A stretch of DNA of 64,000 nucleotides. It comes from Octopus vulgaris. Taxonomy: Eukaryota. Where the stretch lies: contig OX597817.1 in NCBI GenBank assembly GCA_951406725.2, positions 108,252,001 through 108,316,000 of the forward strand. The letters run 5' to 3'. Made by a program: the position numbers and the translations under genes. The notes beneath the pieces are model-generated. The model was not told where the DNA came from and searched no databases. It saw only the letters and a list, made by a program, of their open reading frames with translations. Position 1 is the stretch's first letter. Each line of letters begins with the position of its first letter. Shown here one piece after another: positions 7,815-57,620 of this stretch.

Positions 7815-8048
7815 ACCGGAGTAAACACATAAATGTGAAACAAGGTGGAAAAACGAGTACTCAAATACCAGTGGTAGAGTAATATGCTTTATTTAAAGCA
7901 GCAGAAAATTCAACAAAACCTGTTACTCTGAGTTTCACGTTTACGTTTGTCGGACAGTTTTTTCTAGCAAAAACTGTCCGACGAACGGGAATGTGAAACT
8001 CAGAGTAACAGGTTTTATTGAATTTTCTGCTGCTTTAAATAAAGTATA
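7815..8048. mobile_element. Non-autonomous Penelope-type inverted element with two hammerhead arms
   Basis: ~80-bp inverted arms (7883-7962 / 7969-8048) plus a ~70-nt one-sided extension, flanked by (TA)n. Confidence 0.7.
7974..8011 (+). ncRNA. Minimal type I hammerhead ribozyme motif (C4 core variant)
   Basis: CTGT-CCGACGA-AC(GGGAAT)GT-GAAA-CTCAGAGT-A-ACAG: stem I CTGT/ACAG, stem III ACTC/GAGT, GUA site. Confidence 0.65.
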
Positions 8049-8175
8049 TATATATATATATATATGTGTGTGTTGTTACAGAGAAAGGGAGAATGCCACT
8101 TATATTTGAACACTATACAAATATTCCTTTAAAAAAACTTTTCTTCTAATTTTTCTAAATTTAATTATTTAATCG

Positions 8176-8218
8176 TTACAGTTGAAAAGGTCTCAAAATG
8201 ACCGAAACCGGTACTGAA
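8176..8218 (+). ncRNA. Minimal type I hammerhead ribozyme motif (U3:A8 variant)
   Basis: TTACAG-TTGAAAA-GGTC(TCAAAAT)GACC-GAAA-CCGGT-A-CTGAA; palindromic stem III ACCGGT. Confidence 0.7.
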
Positions 8219-8435
8219 ATGTTCTTTATAAACACTAAGCTGTTGAACTATATATTCTTTTTGCAGGATATAAACAAATATTGATACTACCCAAGCAGTA
8301 GCAATATGAAGACAATTTAAGATTCAAATTAATGAAGTGCAATAATAATGTTTAGCTCTTCAAAGCTGTGAGTAGTGAAATGCAGAATTAGGTCAGCTGA
8401 TCATGAGAATCAAATATTGATTGCTAAAAACTGCT

Positions 8436-8873
8436 GGTGGTATGGTTTATTTCCCTTGGGTTGTTTAAATAATATATTTGTAATATGTAGTAGATAAGAG
8501 AATCCATTAGATGGGCACTATTATCGATTTTTTTCAACAATCTAAGTATGTCACAAGGTTTTCCAGACATGAGTTCTACTCACGTGTCAAATAAGGTAAA
8601 AAAAAAAGAGATATTGTCTGCAAAAATTAGAAATAGAACACACAAAAAATCAATATCCAAAGTAACTGAACATAAACAATGAAATGGGCTGTTTCCCATG
8701 AGTGTTTAAAAAAAATATTATGCAGGTGGTATGGGTTATTTCCCTTGGGTGTTTAAAAAATTGGTTATATGAGGTAGATACAAAGGTCCCTTCTAGGGGC
8801 TGTATTATTGATATTCTTCAACAATCTAAGTATGTCATGAGGTTTCCAGACATGAGTTCTATTCACATGTCAA
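8436..8873. repeat. Diverged local direct duplication (~150 bp, ~290 bp apart)
   Basis: ggtggtatgg.ttatttcccttggg ... caacaatctaagtatgtca...tccagacatgagttcta occurs twice. Confidence 0.8.
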
Positions 8874-9376
8874 GTTTCATCAAAATCAATAAAACCATGT
8901 AGGAGGAGTTAGATAACAATGTCACAAACAAACACACACCGATTTTCCACATATGTAGTAGATAGATGCAGGCATGGGTAAGTGATTTTAGAAGTTTGTC
9001 TCACACCACTTGGATTCAAGTTCAATTCCATTGAATGGGACTTTGGATAAAAGTCTTTTGTTACATGCTTGAGTTGACTAGTGCCCCGTGAGTGATATTT
9101 GGCAGCTAGAAACTGTATGGAAGCCTGGTATGTGTGTATATGTGTCTTTGTCTTCATATTGCTACTGCTTGGGCAGTATCAATATTTGTTTATGTCCTGC
9201 AAAGAGAATATGTAGTTCAACAGCTCAGTGTGTGAAGACAAGTAACGTGAAGTGCTCAACCTGAAAACAACTAAGTTGGTATCAAGCAGAGCATCTGGCC
9301 ACATGCTACAGTCCCAAGAGATCTTGTCTAACCAATGTCAGCATGAATTGGACAAGTCTTGATGATGATGATGATA

Positions 9377-20830: not shown

Positions 20831-22289
20831 TTGCATTGAAAATTGATTTTTAGCCTGTATACCATACCTGAGTGAGGCAGTGAAGACTGAATTAGTCTTC
20901 ACCTGCAGAAGGGTTTTAACCTACTGTTTCTTATCAACCACACTCCTCTTGAGCTGGTTTCAGTTGCTATGACTGTTTCCTTGGTGGCTTTCTTGAGTTA
21001 TATGGGTTCCAGTTTACTTTTCTGCTGGAAATAGCACACTGATTTTGCTGGAAAGCCTTGGCAGCTGATTTCAATAGTGGATGAGGCCATGTGCCATCCT
21101 TAACAAGTGACTTGTCAATCAAGTTCCCATATTTGATATTCTTTAGTTGGTGAGAAATATTGAGTCTTTCCCAGAGCACTGGAAGTTCAGCCACAATGAT
21201 TGTTTTGGGAGTAGATTATGGATAATGACTACAAAATATAGTTGTTTTACATGAACGTGAAATTTCTTGTCAGAAACAGCCACATAAATGGTGTAAGGAA
21301 ATTGAAGGAAGATGTTGAAACTTCTCCTCTGTGAGTTTATTCATTTCAACAGCAAAGGGAGCTATTTTTTTTTGGAGAGAAAAGCTAACAAAAGCCCCTT
21401 TATTCTATCTTCCCACATAGCGTGCACATAAACTAACAGCGAATGCTACATAAAGCTAAATTGGTATGGAGCTTTCTGAAAGATGTGTAAAGCTTTTGCT
21501 AGTGGAAGCAAAACTATTATTTAAAGGTTGATTCTTTGGGACGTGTTTAAAAAAGGCTAGAATGACAATGCTAAAACCTATTTGAAACAATGGACAGCAG
21601 TTGAAATATCATAATGGCTGGGTAAAGAAGCATCCTTAAAGTGAAACAATGGTATCAAAGGTAAAAAAAAAGGTATCAACAATCAGAAGAGAGGGAAGGG
21701 AACATCACCTTTCAAGTAACTCAGAATAGGTAAAAGTAAGCTTGCCAAAGTTTAATGCAGTTTCAATATGTAGATTAAGATAGTTTGGTATTGGATATTC
21801 ATCAAGTATAGCTTTCCTAGTCAACTGAATCACTGTCGTAAGTGGACAGCAGAAATGGATGAAAACCTTTCACTTTTATAAAAAGATTAAAAAGAAAATA
21901 AGGGAAAAAAGCAATCGTTTTTTCACAGTGAAAAATTGTTTCCTAGTAGCTGGAATTTTGCAACAAAATGTATGTTTATTAAGCATAACAGCCTGCAGTG
22001 CATGCTGCTGGGCATTAAAAGTCAATTGCACAAACCTAGAGGGGCTCTGGGCCCCCTTGAATCAATAAAAAATCACTCTTTTTGCCATAGCAGCCACATC
22101 TTTATAGCTTGCGAATTTTAACCATCGCAGGTCTCATCCTCACTATGCATTTAGTATCCCTGCCAATTTTCAGCTCGATCCTAACCTTGGTTTGGCTGCC
22201 ATTAACTGTCAAAGCAAAATATGCATACAATTTTCGTCCAAGGCCTGTTTTATAGATATAGAAAATAATAATAATAATAATTATTATCA

Positions 22290-22500
22290 TTTCAAATTTT
22301 TGCCACAAGGGCAGCTTGGGGGAGGTGGGGATGAGTTGATTACATCAACCCCAGTGTGTAACTGATACTTATTTCATCAACCCTAAAGGGATGAAAGGCA
22401 AAGTTGACCTTGGTGGAATTTGAACTCAGAACGTAGTGACAGACAACATACTGCTAAGCATTTCGCCTGGAGTGCTAATGATTCTGCCAGCTCACTGCCT
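22290..22500 (-). mobile_element. Nin-domain-type tRNA SINE
   Basis: ggatgaaaggcaaagttgacc...tttgaactcagaac...gctaagcatttc. Confidence 0.8.
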
Positions 22501-22916
22501 TAATGATGATGATGATGATAATAATAATAACAACAACAATAATAATAGATCAGCTGTAATCTAAAGTAATTTGAGATTATGGGGGGTCTAGGTTTACAAT
22601 AAAGTAATAAAATGAAAAGTTTAGGATCCAAGGTAAAGGTCTCAGGAACAGAAACAAATCAATTTCAACTCCTACTACAAAGAAAACTTTATAATAATAG
22701 TTTAATGCTGAAAAGAAGAAAAAGAAATGAGAAGTGTTCTGTATTTTGGATAATAACACTATTTCAAGGAAAAGCAAAGAAGAAAGGAAGAGCTAAGTTC
22801 CATGGAAAGATATTGCAAAATTATGTGTATATATATGTATATATATATATATGCACACAACACACATAAATACGTATGTGTGTGTGTATGTTTACATATA
22901 TATATATATACATATA

Positions 22917-31544: not shown

Positions 31545-31985
31545 GGCTAGCCAGCAGAATCGTTAGCACGTCGGGCAAAATGCTTAGCGACATATCGTTC
31601 GTCTTTACATTCGGAGTTCAAATTCCGCCGAGGTCGACTTTGCCTTTCATCCTTTCGAGATCGATAAAATAAGTACCAGTTGAGCACAGGGGGTCAATGT
31701 AATCGATTCACCCCTCCCTCGATTTTGCTGGCCTTGTGCCAAAATTTCAAATCATTATTATAATTATGAAACCGGCGAACTGACATAATCGTTAGCAAGC
31801 TGGGCAAAATTCTTTGCAGCATTTCGTCTGTCTTTACGTTCTGAGTTCAAATTCTGCTGAGGTCGACTTCGCCTTTTATCCTTTTGGGGTCGATAAAATA
31901 AGTACCAGTTGGACAGTGGGGTCCATGTAATAAGCTTATCCCTTCCCCAAAATTGCTAGCCTTGTGCCAAAACTTGAAACCATTG
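31545..31985 (+). mobile_element. Two head-to-tail Nin-domain-type SINEs
   Basis: Two complete units, each ending ccttgtgccaaaa.tt.aaa. Confidence 0.85.
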
Positions 31986-32599
31986 TTATTACTACACACG
32001 TGTATACTCACAAGTGTGCGTGAACAAAAGTAAATATAAATATATGCATACATAAATAATTATCAGCAAGTGGCCTAATTTTGAAAAACACCTCTCCAGT
32101 TTCTCGACATTATTGGCAAATAATTAGGATAACAGCCACAGAAGTTATACAGAATAACCGGTATATTGAGTTTCCCACTCTCTCCAGAAGAAACTTGATA
32201 TGCATATTGTTATAGTAGCTAATGATTGAGGTAATCTCGAAAGAAGGACACATTGGTAAATAGAGAAGCCAAGCAGAAAGGTGAGACGAGAGAAAGAAAC
32301 AAAGAAAAAGAGCAGGAGACTGGGGAAGATAAGTGGTTGTAAAAGAAATATAATGATGGTGATGAAATATAATGAATAAGTAGAGCGGGATAAAGGAGAC
32401 ATGAGCCAGACTGACGAAGAAAAGAAAGTGAGAAGATGAAAAAGAAAACGACAGAAATGTGAAGGAAAATTAGAAGGCAGAAAGTGAAGATGAATAAAAA
32501 AATGCCGAGAAGGTTAAAAATAATAAATAAAAAAGAAGAAAACGGTAGACGAGGAGAACAAAGAAGCAATGACAAAAAGAATAATGCCATAATATTTAT

Positions 32600-42804: not shown

Positions 42805-42985
42805 AGTTACGTGATATATACGAGTTCGTGATATATATGCGAGTTACGTATATATCACGAGTTCGTGATATATATGCGAGTTACGTATATATCACGAGTT
42901 CGTGATATATATGCGAGTTACGTATATATCACGAGTTCGAGATATATATGCGAGTTACGTATATATCACGAGTTCGTGATATATA
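42805..42985 (+). repeat. 35-37-bp tandem repeat inside the LTR
   Basis: gagttcgtgatatatatgcgagttacgtatatatcac about 4.5 times. Confidence 0.9.
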
Positions 42986-43229
42986 GGGCGGCGAGCTGGC
43001 AAAAACGTTAGCACACCGGGCGAAATGCTTAGCGGAATTTCGTCTGCCGTTACATTCTGAGTTCAAAATCCGCCTAGGTTGACTTTGCCTTTCATCCTTT
43101 CGGGGTCGATTAAATAAGTACCAGTTATGCACTGGGGTCAATGTAATCGACTTAATCCTTTTCTCTGTCCTTGTTTGTCCCCTCAATGTTTAGCCCCCCC
43201 CCCCCACCACCTGTGGGCAATAAAGAAAT
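42986..43229 (+). mobile_element. Young Nin-domain-type SINE inserted in the LTR
   Basis: ggcggcgagctggc head through gcaataaagaaata tail; CpGs intact. Confidence 0.9.
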
Positions 43230-45110
43230 AGATATATACGAGTTCGAGTCATCGTGAAGGTAGACTTTTCAAAGCTATTGTCTTGCGGAGCTATCAGTGA
43301 TAGCAGGATAGACGAATCAAGGATTATAAGACGCGCAATACCGCCACAACACAATAGTGGCGACAAGAATATTACAGTGCCGACAATAAAATACAAGTGG
43401 ACGAGGATCCACATTATAACTGGCGACGAGGATATAAACATTTTACGCGGACAACGTTGAAAAACAAAAATATTTTCACGAGAAAATAAACAATTCACGC
43501 GGACGACGTTGAAAAACTTTTCACGTGGAGAAACTCAACTGGAGAGTAACAAACATTTTTGTTCTACTTATTTTACGAAAAATCCGTAAAATTATGGAAA
43601 ACTAGTCAGAGAGTCTAGTTGAGTTCCAAAAACAGCAACGACTCGACGAACAACAAGAACAACAACAAATGTTATGGCGACAAATGCTACAACTAATGAA
43701 ATTGGGTAGCAAAACCGGAAAATACGTTTTCGCCAGACCATGTAGCAAATTCAATAAATGAATTTAAATATGACCCGGAAGAAAAAGTCACCTTCGAAGC
43801 ATATTATCGAAGTTTTGAACAAATTTTCGAAAATGAATGACAAGACTTGAAATAAAAACGCGTCTAATTCTGAGGAAAATAGCGACGATAGAGCATGAAA
43901 CACACTGTAACTTTATATTGCCTAAAAAGGTTTCTGGCATAAATTTCACAGATACAACATTTTATGTAGGAAATTTAGTGAAAAAACATCGTTGTTCAAC
44001 ACACGTTGGAAGTGTTTGAATACCGAGAAACGTGATGACGAAGACTTTACCACATATGTGGGTAGAGTAAACAGAGCGTGCGAGAGATTTAAACTGGATA
44101 AACTAATTCCAGACTCGTTCAAGTGCCTGATGTTTGTTCAGGGACTTACATAACTCTCCAGAAACTGTCAGAAGAGTGTGATATGATATTAATATGACAC
44201 AGAAGAAATCCAAAGCAGAGATTGTTAACAGATAAAACTTGTGTGGAAGAGATGGAAGACGGATGAGGTGTTTCACAAAGATCACGATATACAACAGGAG
44301 ATAAATCCATGTATGGCATGCGGTGATAGCTACTTGAGAAAAGAGTGTCCGTTCAAAATAGCAAAATATTTTTCGTTGTGGGAAAACAGGACACATTAAA
44401 TCGCACTACAGAACTAAGATGACGAAAATCTGGACTAAACGAGAAAAAATAAATAGTTTGTCGTTTGAGAAAAAAGTTTGTATAACGAACAGAAAATCCA
44501 TCAAGGCGAGAATCGAAACCACTAGTGTCAAAATGCAATTAGACATGGGTAGTGATATCACTCATAAATGAAGAAACAGCGAAAAATCGGTAAGCCGAAA
44601 TTATTTATATATAAAAAAAAGTAGCATATGGTGTTACAGGAAAGAAACTATATTTCAACGGCGAATGTATTTGCAACGTAACTTTTCGAGATGGAACGAA
44701 AAGGACAATCATTTATGTATTGAAAAAAAATTACTAAACCTATTTGACACAAAATGCATAGAGTTATTTAGAATGTGGGATACTCCCATTAGTGTTCTCT
44801 GTGAAAATGTAGTCGGCACGGTTAAAAGTTCGAAGGAAGTCGAACAACTGAGACTATTGGATCCATGAGGTAACTTTCTGCCCAGCCATAACCAACGACT
44901 ACATAATATATAGCGGATCTTCTGTGTAGAAATAGATGTACAACTGCTACTGTTAAATATAATGTCCCACGTAAATTATCGTCGTCCGATCTGTTTCAGT
45001 GGTAATCAACTTCTATACTTAGTATTACTAATAATGAACTACAGTGCAAATATAGGAGAAATTAAGATAAACATAAGGTTATATTATAATTGAGACATTA
45101 GTGCTCTGTA

Positions 45111-52864: not shown

Positions 52865-54940
52865 TCTTAGACCATAAACTAAAAATAGTGGAATTTACAT
52901 GTGAAACATTTGTGAATACATATTCTTAGAAGGATGAATAGAAAATTGGCAAGAGCCAAATGATTATTAAATGTTCTGATTAATGTCAATTATGTCACTT
53001 GTCTTACACTAATTGTCAGTTTATTTAATGCTTTATGTCTATAGAACACTTTCAAGAATTATTATGGTATTCTTCACGTTAAGTTACAATGCTGGAGCTC
53101 AATAATTTTCGCCATCCCAACTACGTGACCGCAAAGCTAATCAGTAGAGAAAGAGAAGCGGTACTCTATATAGAACGTGCAATGCAACAAGTCAGTGACT
53201 TCATATTTTGAAAGCGAATGCTTGCTAATCAGTCTGTAGAGAAGTAGGAAAAGTCATCTACGCTTTTATTCATTAGACGTTCCAACAGTTATATAAAGTT
53301 CCTCCAACAGATATGGTGCGTTTATGGTTTGATAATCTCCACTAAAATGGCAACACGATGTTGAAAGGTTAATAAATGTTCCTTGATTCATACAAGTTTA
53401 GAGAAATGGCAAACTGCGAAGAATATAGACTTCAGTGCACTAGCAATTTTATTTACTGTTAGATGACTGTGAAAGTATACTGTAAAGAAGTGGTAGAGTA
53501 CGCTGTGCAAGAGACGTACTCCGGTGGGAACGCTGTCCAAAGCGAAAAGATATAAAGTCATTCTACACTTTCTTTTGTAAATATCATATAATGATAATAG
53601 CGGGACTGAGTTAGTCCCATTGCTGCTGGTCGTAGGAGAAATAAAGAATTTGCTAATCCAACCTGGAATACGGTATTAGCGGTAAACAATTTTGAAAGGG
53701 ATGTACGGTATGAAATTTACTAGCACATTAGATAAACAGAGAAAGTTGGCATCGCAACAGGTTAAAAATGAAGTTCAAATATAGTTGTCCTTAGACACGA
53801 TGTAAGTAAAGAGACGATTTGTTTGTGTGTATGTGTGTGTGCGTTTACGTGTATGCATGTGTGGAAAGAGAGGGAGAGAGAAAAAGAGAGAGGAGGGGAG
53901 TGAAGGAGAGAGAGATATGAAATAGGTAGGCAAGCAATAGACAGATAGAGCTCTTATACGCATAAAAAAAAACTTAAGAGAGAGGAAAAAGCTATTTCTT
54001 TATTAGTCTAATTGTCTTCTTTCCTTCTATCTTTATTATTGTTTCTGTTTCACTGTCTCCATCTAATTACATCTCTCGCATTTGAGTCTCTACTACTCGT
54101 TTCTACGAGTAAACTTTCTCACCTAGGGCATCTATATTTCCGTTTATTAAACAGGGAAAATACTGTGTGCACAATTCATAGACAATTTTATTAAAAGAGT
54201 CATGACGAGACAACATGAACTGTGACAATATAATAATAATGAAGGAAATTGTTGCATACAGTGCTCAGGTGCACTTTGTGACTGTGGAACAGTCCTAACC
54301 AGTCGCCCCCAGGTCTGCTAGTTATTGTATTTCTATTGTTGGAATGATCCTAGAAATGACAACGAATGCGTTAAATAAGTTAAAGAATTGATATGAACAC
54401 GAATTATAATGATTTTGTCCCTTCGCATAAATGCAAAACCAACATGCATACATACATACATAAAAAAATATATATATAGTGAGCTTTTATGTATTCACAC
54501 GTCGTTGATTCTATATTGCTTATACTTTTTCTTTTTATTTATACGTGTGTGTGAAAGACATGTACTAAGGATAGACATAGAATTAAACATTTATTGTATA
54601 TATTTGCAGACGCAATTTGTACCCCCAACAATCCGACAAGAGTGCGAAATATGAAGCGAAACAAAATCGCAGTTGACAATGAGAGTTAGCTACCTTTATA
54701 TTGATCTTTTCCATCGAAGTCAAATAGTATCAGCATTTTGCCAACAAATGAATATTACGGATAATTTATTGTAAAGTGGAAACTAATTAAGTTTACTAAG
54801 TTATATGACGCAACTACTAAACTAATCACTCTAGTTTTTTTGTATATCAATGTGAGGCTTTTAACTATATAAATATATACATATATATATTGAAAAAAAG
54901 TCAAGATAGAAAATGCTAAATTAATTTTATAAAAAAACAT

Positions 54941-54981
54941 TTCAGTACCGGTTTCAGTTATTGAGACTTTTTCAACTGTAA
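54941..54981 (-). ncRNA. Second U3:A8 hammerhead motif (same family as 8176)
   Basis: TTACAG-TTGAAAA-AGT(CTCAATA)ACT-GAAA-CCGGT-A-CTGAA; flank 54925-55070 homologous to 8090-8235. Confidence 0.7.
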
Positions 54982-55127
54982 CAGTTAAACAATTAAATTT
55001 AGAAAAATTAAAAGAAAAGTTTTTTAAAAAGAATATTTGTATAGTATTCAAATACAAGTGGCATATTCCTTGTTTCTGCCTGTCTCTGTCTCTCTTGTTT
55101 ACTCTTCTGGGTTTGAGGTCATTGTGG

Positions 55128-55329: not shown

Positions 55330-57620
55330 TTCTGCCAGCTTGCCAAATGAGGATTAAGGCCAGCATGTTTAGGGAGTTGGGGGTAGTGAATTGCATCAAC
55401 CCCAGTGGTCAACTGAAACTTATTAACCCTTAAAGGATGAAAAGCAAAGTCGATCTCAGTGGAATTTGAGCTCAGAACATAAAAAGCTAGAAGAAATTCT
55501 GCTAAGCATTTTGTTTGATGTACTAACAATTCTGCCATCCTGTCACTTTAGATGATAATGAAAATAATGATTTCAAATTTTTGCACTAGGTCAGCAATTT
55601 TGGGGTAGGAGTAAGTCGATTATATCGACCCCAGTGCTTAACTTGTACTTATTTTATTGACCTGAAAAGGTGAAAGGTAAAGTTGACCTTGGTGAAATTT
55701 GAATTCAGGGATCTTTTCCTTTTGAATGACACATGTCAACACAATTTCTAGTTAACTAAACACTTTAAAACTTCGTATACTGGTAGAATGTGTCAAAATA
55801 AAACACTTTTTTTCTCTTGGCTTTCTTGAGAAAATTGTAATTTGTAAGTTTAACATAGTTTAATTTTTCGAATTTTAACCAATCCTATGCCCTCTATTTA
55901 GCTAAAATCATTTGCTGCGTCTAAAACTGAGACAACATCCTGTCACTAACCCTAACTCTAACCCTAACCCTCACCCTAACCCTAACTCTAAATTTTAGCC
56001 TTTCATTTTTTTTTTCTTAATTGTTAAATTAATTTAATTGTTACGCGTGTGTCTAAAATTATTCGTTTTGTTTTTGTTTTGAGTTTTTGTTTTCGTTTTA
56101 GCCTTTCATTTTTTTTTTCTTAATTGTTAAATTAAAATTATTTTCCATTGCTTTCGTTTTAGCCTTTCGTTTTGTTTTTCTTAATTGTTATCCTTAAATT
56201 AATTTAACAATTAAGAAAAAAAAATGAAAGGCTAAAATTTAGGGTTAGTGACAGGATGTTGTCTCAGTTTTAGACGCAGCAAATGATTTTAGCTAAATAG
56301 AGGGCATAGGATTGGTTAAAATTCGAAAAATTAAACTACGTTAAACAAACAAATTACAATTTTCTCAAGAAAGCCAAGAGAAAAAAATGTTTTATTTTGA
56401 CACATTCTACCAGTATACGAAGTTTAAAAGTGTTTAGTTAACTAGAAATTGTGTTGAAAAGTGCTGTTCAAAAAGGAAAAGATCCGAATTCAGTATGTAG
56501 CAGCAGATGTAACACAGATAAGCATTTCATCTGGTGTGCCTATGATTCTGCCAGCTCGCCACCTTAAAATCCTTTCTAGTAAAGGTACAAGGTCTGAAAT
56601 TTGGTGTGAATGGACTAATCCATTACATTGACCACAGTGTTTCACTGGTATTTAATTTATTGGCCCCAAAAGGATGAAAGGCAAAGTTGACTTCAGTGGA
56701 ATTAGATCTCAGAAAGTAGAGAGCTGAAATACCGCTAAGCATTTCACCCAGCATGCTAACTATTCTACCAGCCCACCGTCTATAATAATAATAATGATGA
56801 TGATGATGATGATGATGATAACAAACACCTTGATGCAATATCAGGCAATGGCTTTCATGGCTTTTGATCTTAACTGATTGGAAGTGTTATCACGTATGTT
56901 TTGTCTTGGTATAAAAGATGGGCTACAGCAAATATTCTGCTCAATGCCACTGATTTGCTTCTCAGTTACTTGACCTTGACCACTTGAATATGTCCCTTAG
57001 TGGCTGATGATATGAGCAGCTCTGATCACAAGCAGGAGTAGTGGGGAGCACCATAGACATGTGTTGAGAGGACTTCTTTGAGATTTGAATAATTCACCTC
57101 TGGAAACATGGGTGTTTTGTTCATCACTCTGAAACAGACCTTATTCAGGGATCTTTTGAGTGGGATGGGCTACTTGACCTGAAGAAAATTCTAAGTGTGT
57201 CCCTCCTGCAAGGTCATGCTCTGTTTTATCTTGATATGAAATCACCATGTTGTACATATATGGTTGCAGTGCATGCACCTGGTGTACCATTATCAGACAG
57301 GTGATCACGATGAGTATATTGGGCTTCATATAGTTGTACCTCAGTGTCACTTTGATGGCATACATTGCTCTCTCAGTCAATAATAATAATGATAATAATA
57401 ATAGTTTCAAATGTTGACACAGGGCCAGCAGCTTTTGATGAAGAGGGGAAAGTTGATTACAGCAACCCCAGTACTTGACTGGTACTTATTTTATTGACCC
57501 CCCAAGAGGATGAAAGACAAAACTGATTCCAGTAGCATTTGAATACATAACATAAAGAGCTAGAAGAAATGCTACTAAGCATTTTATCCAGGGTACTAAT
57601 GATTCTGCCTGCTTGATATC
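55330..57620 (-). mobile_element. Cluster of co-oriented Nin-domain-type SINEs
   Basis: Copies at ~55330, 55570 (split by a MITE), 56570 and 57405. Confidence 0.75.
55709..56485. mobile_element. Merlin-like fold-back MITE
   Basis: GGATC...GATCC termini, ~280-320-bp arms, exact 8-bp TSD GAATTCAG, (TAACCC)n at ~55947-55990. Confidence 0.9.

Follow-up and report, generated by a model that had tools for sequence, protein, structure and literature searches.

Is the short motif near the start of this stretch of Octopus vulgaris DNA a hammerhead ribozyme, and if so, which element carried it there, has its structure been kept by selection, and could it still cut? The original prediction had described it as a hammerhead variant with a UUGAAAA core, in which the 3:8 pair is U3:A8. 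In the following, the window is the whole stretch of 64,000 nucleotides that was analysed, and copy 1 and copy 2 are its two occurrences of the motif.

Identification of the motif

The motif occupies positions 8177–8219 of the window on the plus strand and can be arranged as a type I hammerhead with a U3:A8 core, a 4-bp helix II, and a palindromic ACCGGU helix III (Table 1). Copy 1 contains UUGAAAA, GAAA, U16.1, and A17, with a Watson-Crick pair at 3:8 in the form of U3:A8. The first pair of its helix II (10.1-11.1) is G8189-C8203, and in the predicted fold the 5′ strand of helix I is extended by CGUU beyond an A·A mismatch. A descriptor composed of the U3:A8 core, 3-bp helices I and II, and a palindromic helix III found exactly two sites in the 64-kb window and none in each of 60 block shuffles. 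The presence of the predicted variant is confirmed. That U3:A8 is a known natural form is borne out by the available text of PMC3088659 and PMC4209133.

An Rfam search at the gathering score returned no match in the window. A weak match to Hammerhead_HH9 (RF02275) lies in the same register at 8168–8233, but it scores 20.4 bits where the cut-off is 52 (E value 0.01 for 301 bases). Rfam at the gathering score also returned nothing in genomic loci L190, L196, and L275; the canonical-core copies in L190 and L196 were thus missed as well, which indicates that the models do not cover forms with a short helix III. In the lowest-energy fold of copy 1, helices I and II are formed and helix III is open (z = -1.13, not significant on its own). 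Taken as a whole, the sequence supports a U3:A8 hammerhead for which self-cleavage is predicted.

Copy 2 lies on the minus strand, with the hammerhead core starting at 54975 and A17 at 54946, and is 87% identical to copy 1 over 155 bp. The first pair of its helix II is A-U. The original prediction had read this as covariation of helix II between the two copies; the change of the first pair from G-C to A-U stands, but the prediction overlooked that the fourth pair of copy 2 is broken (C·A; this copy reads AACU in place of the GACU of its subfamily) and that its helix II loop is 2 nt shorter. The minimum-energy fold of copy 2 is not a hammerhead.

Table 1. Positions of the two element fragments and of the hammerhead parts of copy 1 in the window
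Feature	Position	Strand	Remarks
3′ pseudo-LTR fragment of a Penelope-like element assigned to the Neptune type, 155 bp	8078..8232	+	young G-C subfamily
Helix I, 5′ strand	8174..8181	+	CAG 8179–8181 adjoins the core; from sequence
Catalytic core U3 U4 G5 A6 A7 A8 A9 (UUGAAAA)	8182..8188	+	from sequence; fixed in the family
Helix II, GGUC 8189–8192 / GACC 8200–8203, 7-nt loop	8189..8203	+	from sequence, fold, and subfamily counts
GAAA 8204–8207, palindromic ACCGGU 8207–8212, A17 at 8213	8204..8213	+	from sequence; cut predicted 3′ of 8213
Helix I, 3′ strand	8214..8221	+	CUG 8214–8216, predicted extension AAUG; from sequence and fold
Second fragment of the same element, A-U subfamily	54866..55126	-	between two (TA)n tracts

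The carrier element

The 156 bases around the motif have 99% matches at many places in the 2.8-Gb genome (40 of 1,007 candidates were scored). The fragment that carries copy 1 is 5′-truncated and lacks the usual 3′ tail; its sequence matches, at 99% identity, the 3′ ends of copies with reverse transcriptase (RT) and GIY-YIG domains (L031–L036). In these six extended loci, the frames that encode both domains lie upstream of the motif. Each of the two window copies is an orphan 3′ fragment, and tblastn with the RT-endonuclease (RT-EN) protein as query detected no coding remnant anywhere in the window. L142 contains a 784-aa RT-EN frame with the RT followed by a C-terminal GIY-YIG domain (PF00078 and PF01541, the latter, across the longer copies, scoring above the cut-off in one search and just under it in another), and the hammerhead core lies 693 nt past the stop codon of this frame. 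L138 is near complete, with 951-bp direct repeats that each contain the motif, 4,386 nt apart; the predicted cut site of its 5′ motif lies about 124 nt before the ATG of the first ORF. In translations of the longer copies, a C-x4-C-x2-C linker precedes the GIY-YIG domain, and a CX2-5CxxC linker is described in the available text of PMC8557442 as a mark common to Neptune and Nematis elements. From the order of the domains and from the linker, which is shared with Nematis, the predicted proteins are assigned to the Neptune-type, endonuclease-containing (EN+) elements. Inverted pairs of 5′-truncated copies and (TA)n flanks are frequent in the genome.

Several further features of these elements were observed. 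The first ORF (∼410 aa) precedes the RT-EN frame and slightly overlaps it in another frame (L138:4057-5364 and L140:3683-4816, minus strand). It has no Pfam match, and the two frames may be joined by a frameshift or an intron. At L138:1-983 (minus strand), the 3′ repeat continues for ∼40 nt beyond the cut site and there joins the 5′ end of a sister family, just before the sister family's own hammerhead and first ORF. The two families thus form a head-to-tail chimera in tandem.

Other repeats were noticed in the window. An 84-bp inverted repeat (8232–8315 and 9148–9231, 94% identity) has a left arm that starts exactly at the end of copy 1, and a 159-bp direct repeat (8432–8590 and 8721–8873) lies between its arms; together they may explain the missing tail of copy 1. 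Just upstream of copy 1, between TA tracts, is a 168-bp near-perfect palindrome (7882–8049, 92%) that looks like the head-to-head inverted end of another repeat. An abundant SINE-like interspersed repeat of ∼150–300 bp is present at about 15 places on both strands, with its copies 70–86% alike (e.g. 22270–22530, 31550–31990, 42980–43230, and 55370–55710).

Conservation of the core and rewriting of helix I

Within the family, U3:A8 is fixed apart from 41 copies with U3:G8, 36 with C3:A8, and 3 with C3:G8. The compensatory swap of the 3:8 pair in the original prediction therefore holds relative to the canonical core, but covariation of this pair inside the family was sought and not found. The third pair of helix I reads U-A in 7/9 copies of the most diverged group, A·A in 16 of the 19 copies of another group, and C-G in 50/75 and 104/110 copies of the younger groups. 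Pairing in helices I and II is supported by compensatory changes (U-A/C-G in helix I and A-U/G·U/G-C at 10.1-11.1), and mismatch lineages exist. Old groups contain A·G and A·A as the first pair of helix II and U·U or U·G as the third. The multiplication of copies with A·C, A·G, U·U, and U3·G8 states counts against strict covariation.

These substitutions were also examined with alignment statistics, for which the copies are related and were partly ascertained by pattern. Among 64 hand-picked copies of 176 distinct ones, 84.4% of cells pair, compared with 81.5% in shuffles and 18–43% in slid controls. In the same 64 copies, four pairs have changed on both sides, which was matched by 161 of 500 shuffles and is thus no excess.

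The sister Penelope-like family, represented by 797 copies (control 0), shares the core and the palindrome and has a 2-bp helix II. Its proteins are 43% (first ORF) and about 50–61% (RT-EN) identical to those of the window family, and no DNA similarity was detectable between the unique flanks of the two families. G5, A6, A9, G12, A13, A14, U16.1, and H17 are identical in both. The sister family's helix I is a wholly different 7-bp helix (AAGAAAU/AUUUCUU) that is still complementary, and among the first 100 sister-family copies listed, 15 belong to a U3·G8 sublineage. The rewritten but complementary helix I speaks more strongly than any other observation for selection on the structure, and the proposal that the source elements were under such selection is supported most clearly by this comparison.

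Canonical C3:G8 hammerheads with ACCGGT also occur elsewhere in the genome (398 matches, control 40). Some form tandem arrays with ∼359–360 nt per unit and one such hammerhead in each unit (G000:C1:20002278-20004542, L189–L195, and others), which from their sequence look like non-LTR retrozymes. A further, dispersed C3:G8 family (e.g. L196–L198 and L203–L207) is marked by a long helix II and by one additional A ahead of GAAA, and is often found as inverted pairs. No RT-EN sequence was detected by tblastn within 1.5 kb of 30 canonical-core loci (L185–L214).

Predicted dimerization and the proposed cleavage

Helix III consists of A15.1-U16.1, a C-G pair, and a 2-nt loop, and its closing in a monomer is predicted to cost about 5 kcal/mol. 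For two strands, the predicted minimum is -27.1 kcal/mol and the canonical double hammerhead (trans) reaches -24.9 kcal/mol, compared with -19.6 kcal/mol for two monomers. In the two-strand fold, the strands pair through ACCGGU, which forms an inter-strand helix, and swap helix I strands. The cleavage assay on a single copy that had been proposed originally would probably give a false negative, because helix III cannot form in the monomer. In the available text of PMC4209133, hammerheads of Penelope-like elements are likewise described as inactive as monomers and weakly active as multimers.

The motif is very probably the type I hammerhead of a Neptune-type Penelope-like pseudo-LTR, truncated in the window, and intact elements likely cut only as copies paired through ACCGGU. 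If transcription of an intact element ran through both repeats, the RNA would contain the motif twice and could form a double hammerhead. Cleavage would follow A17, about 124 nt before the ATG of the first ORF, and would make a unit-length RNA possible. It would probably be slow or be helped by the element's own protein. Against this reading stand A10.1-U11.1 and a 2-bp helix II, which do not fit the published consensus of G10.1-C11.1 with 5–8 bp. Of the 35 motif matches in L002–L030, some of which lie in overlapping loci, 34 run on for 53–98 nt beyond the cut site until a microsatellite follows. These extensions suggest that cut RNA is not the usual template, and that the RNA copied into DNA would mostly be uncut at the 3′ motif or rejoined across it, in line with what is reported for the anole element. 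The lone copy at 8078–8232 is probably inert, as it has neither an ORF nor a partner on the same strand.

The extension of genomic copies beyond the cut site also speaks for a rival reading, in which the hammerhead fold was kept by selection for a non-cleaving role (protein binding, RNA dimerization, or a promoter or splice signal) and its catalysis is vestigial. The success of the mismatch lineages, which have multiplied, points in the same direction, as do the low published activity and the dispensability of the ribozyme for insertion in vitro: for the anole element, the accessible part of PMC11167929 describes protein-assisted cleavage and ribozyme mutants without effect on insertion in vitro. 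A pyrimidine-rich run at 8160–8181 ends in AG just before the core, and this AG is kept in older subfamilies. It resembles a splice acceptor in sequence and could be one. A splice acceptor has been described for Drosophila Penelope. Neither a splice joint at this AG nor an accumulation of ends was present in the assembled contigs of four of 24 runs; such contigs cannot reveal RNA ends, and the result was not counted as evidence. A non-cleaving role is nevertheless unlikely, since all catalytic positions are identical in two families with unrelated flanks, and related elements cut in vitro according to the published reports as far as available. We therefore retain the reading of a pseudo-LTR hammerhead that would cleave as a dimer.

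Subfamilies of helix II and their order

Exact-pattern searches recovered at least 3,475 copies of the motif genome-wide (control 0). Pair 10.1-11.1 is G-C in 2,018 of them, A-U in 966, G·U in 382, and A·C in 109 (control 0 for each). When positions 11.1 and 12 of the older subfamily were left free, the first 100 of 382 copies listed contained TG in 84 cases, CG in 10, TA in 4, AG and TT in 1 each, and CA in none (counted by eye); TG is therefore not a product of CpG decay. Helix II loops of 5, 6, and 7 nt were counted by eye in 23, 17, and 60 of the first 100 G·U copies listed, and in 0, 1, and 99 of the first 100 G-C copies listed. The spread of loop lengths identifies G·U as the source state for the forms with 5- and 6-nt loops. 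For G·U copies with a 7-nt loop, a source state and CpG decay are inseparable, and many may be decay products.

The flanks of the motif give an order to these states. In a flank-only tree of 128 of the 215 copies (87 were left out for having less than 130 nt of alignable upstream flank, and the bootstrap is not fully settled), the young G-C copies form one clade (100/99), with the G·U copies below it. Scored at 10 flank markers, A-U copies (59) have a median young-type fraction of 0, G·U copies with 5-, 6-, and 7-nt loops (8, 7, and 6 copies) have medians of 0.3, 0.44, and 0.7, and G-C copies (43) have a median of 1.0; the older subfamily has the A-U type at 9 of these markers and the young type at none. 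The A·C copies form a side lineage, with a linked flank marker in 12/13 versus 20/51 copies. We infer from these sequences that helix II followed the path A-U → G·U → G-C, which leads to the canonical pair and runs counter to CpG decay.

A bolder interpretation would take this series as a dated record of the tuning of a selfish ribozyme by selection, in which the first pair moved from A-U through G·U to G-C, the loop grew from 5 to 6 to 7 nt, and helix I was rebuilt, and would add that RNAs of several unrelated Penelope-like families and of the ∼360-nt tandem retrozymes could pair through the shared ACCGGU and activate one another's cleavage in trans. If true, this would be a ribozyme-level interaction between mobile elements. 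We consider the combined claim quite unlikely, and the sharing of the palindrome by several families is partly ascertainment, because the search patterns required ACCGGT.

That the two window copies differ merely by neutral decay after insertion (CpG loss and a change in an A run), with the covariation accidental, is very improbable. C8203 does lie in a CpG, copy 2 carries a private helix-breaking change, and many 7-nt-loop G·U copies may be CpG decay, but A-U is common to 966 genomic copies, the decay product CA is found in 0 and TG in 84 of the 100 old-subfamily copies listed, and the polarity is from A-U to G-C. CpG decay, against which the original prediction had asked for the G-C/A-U difference to be checked, is ruled out as its cause: entire older subfamilies are characterized by A-U, the 5′ A lies outside any CpG, and for pair 10.1-11.1 the explanation is already refuted. 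It is very improbable that copy 1 is an active monomeric ribozyme co-opted by the host, for although its motif is intact and its lowest-energy fold contains helices I and II, it shares 99% identity with thousands of young transposon copies, and a monomer cannot close helix III.

Comparison with known systems

The class of the motif and its U3:A8 variant have been published, as has their occurrence in Penelope-like repeats, and the octopus motif is an ordinary new example that adds a genome but not a concept. Its modest extras are the age-ordered A-U, G·U, and G-C series and the palindrome common to several families. Within incomplete literature coverage, no published report was found of the window family or of a G·U-intermediate series in a retroelement ribozyme. 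The role of such hammerheads in transposition is described as still open in the available text of PMC8557442 and PMC11167929. The natural, age-ordered variants (A-U, G·U, G-C, and A·C; U3:A8 and U3·G8) with known copy numbers form a test set in which the cleavage rate can be compared with the extent of spread of each version.

Natural U3-A8 hammerheads were first reported in PMC3088659, the accessible text of which states that they were active in vitro in earlier work. These motifs share the core covariation of the octopus motif and are, in that text, not described as Penelope-like repeats. The portion of PMC4209133 at hand places hammerheads in the pseudo-LTRs of Penelope-like elements, reports the U3-A8 variant for ∼1,300 Schistosoma mansoni motifs and a palindromic helix III, and has a Saccoglossus row with U3·G8. 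Of the traits given there, the octopus elements have a motif in each 951-bp pseudo-LTR of L138 and the palindromic ACCGGU, with the dimer predicted to be favoured. From its consensus, the extra base after A9 is missing and G10.1-C11.1 is found only in the young subfamily; the shrimp row lacks both.

Among the systems in this source, as far as its text was available, S. mansoni Cercyon resembles the octopus family in its U3-A8 core (the S. mansoni(4) row reads UUGAAAA), type I layout, pseudo-LTR location, palindromic 15.2-16.2, and many single truncated copies and inverted pairs. Unlike in Cercyon, helix II of the octopus motif has 4 bp, no unpaired base follows A9, loop 3 is a 2-nt palindromic loop, cleavage is predicted after an A, and there is very little variation within the young subfamily. 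The row of the Penelope-like element of the shrimp Marsupenaeus japonicus is similar in its 4-bp helix II with A-U first, as in the octopus A-U subfamily, in having no extra base after A9, and in its 6-nt palindrome with a CG loop and A17, but its core is the canonical C3-G8. The shrimp element MjPLE01 is Neptune-like and is described as lacking an endonuclease in the part of PMC8557442 that was available. Poseidon of Anolis carolinensis, as presented in the available sections of PMC11167929, shares with the octopus elements a pseudo-LTR hammerhead near the start of the ORF, a tail beyond the motif, and AT-rich targets. It belongs to a different clade and has a C3-G8 core, and its cleavage has been measured, whereas that of the octopus motif is predicted.
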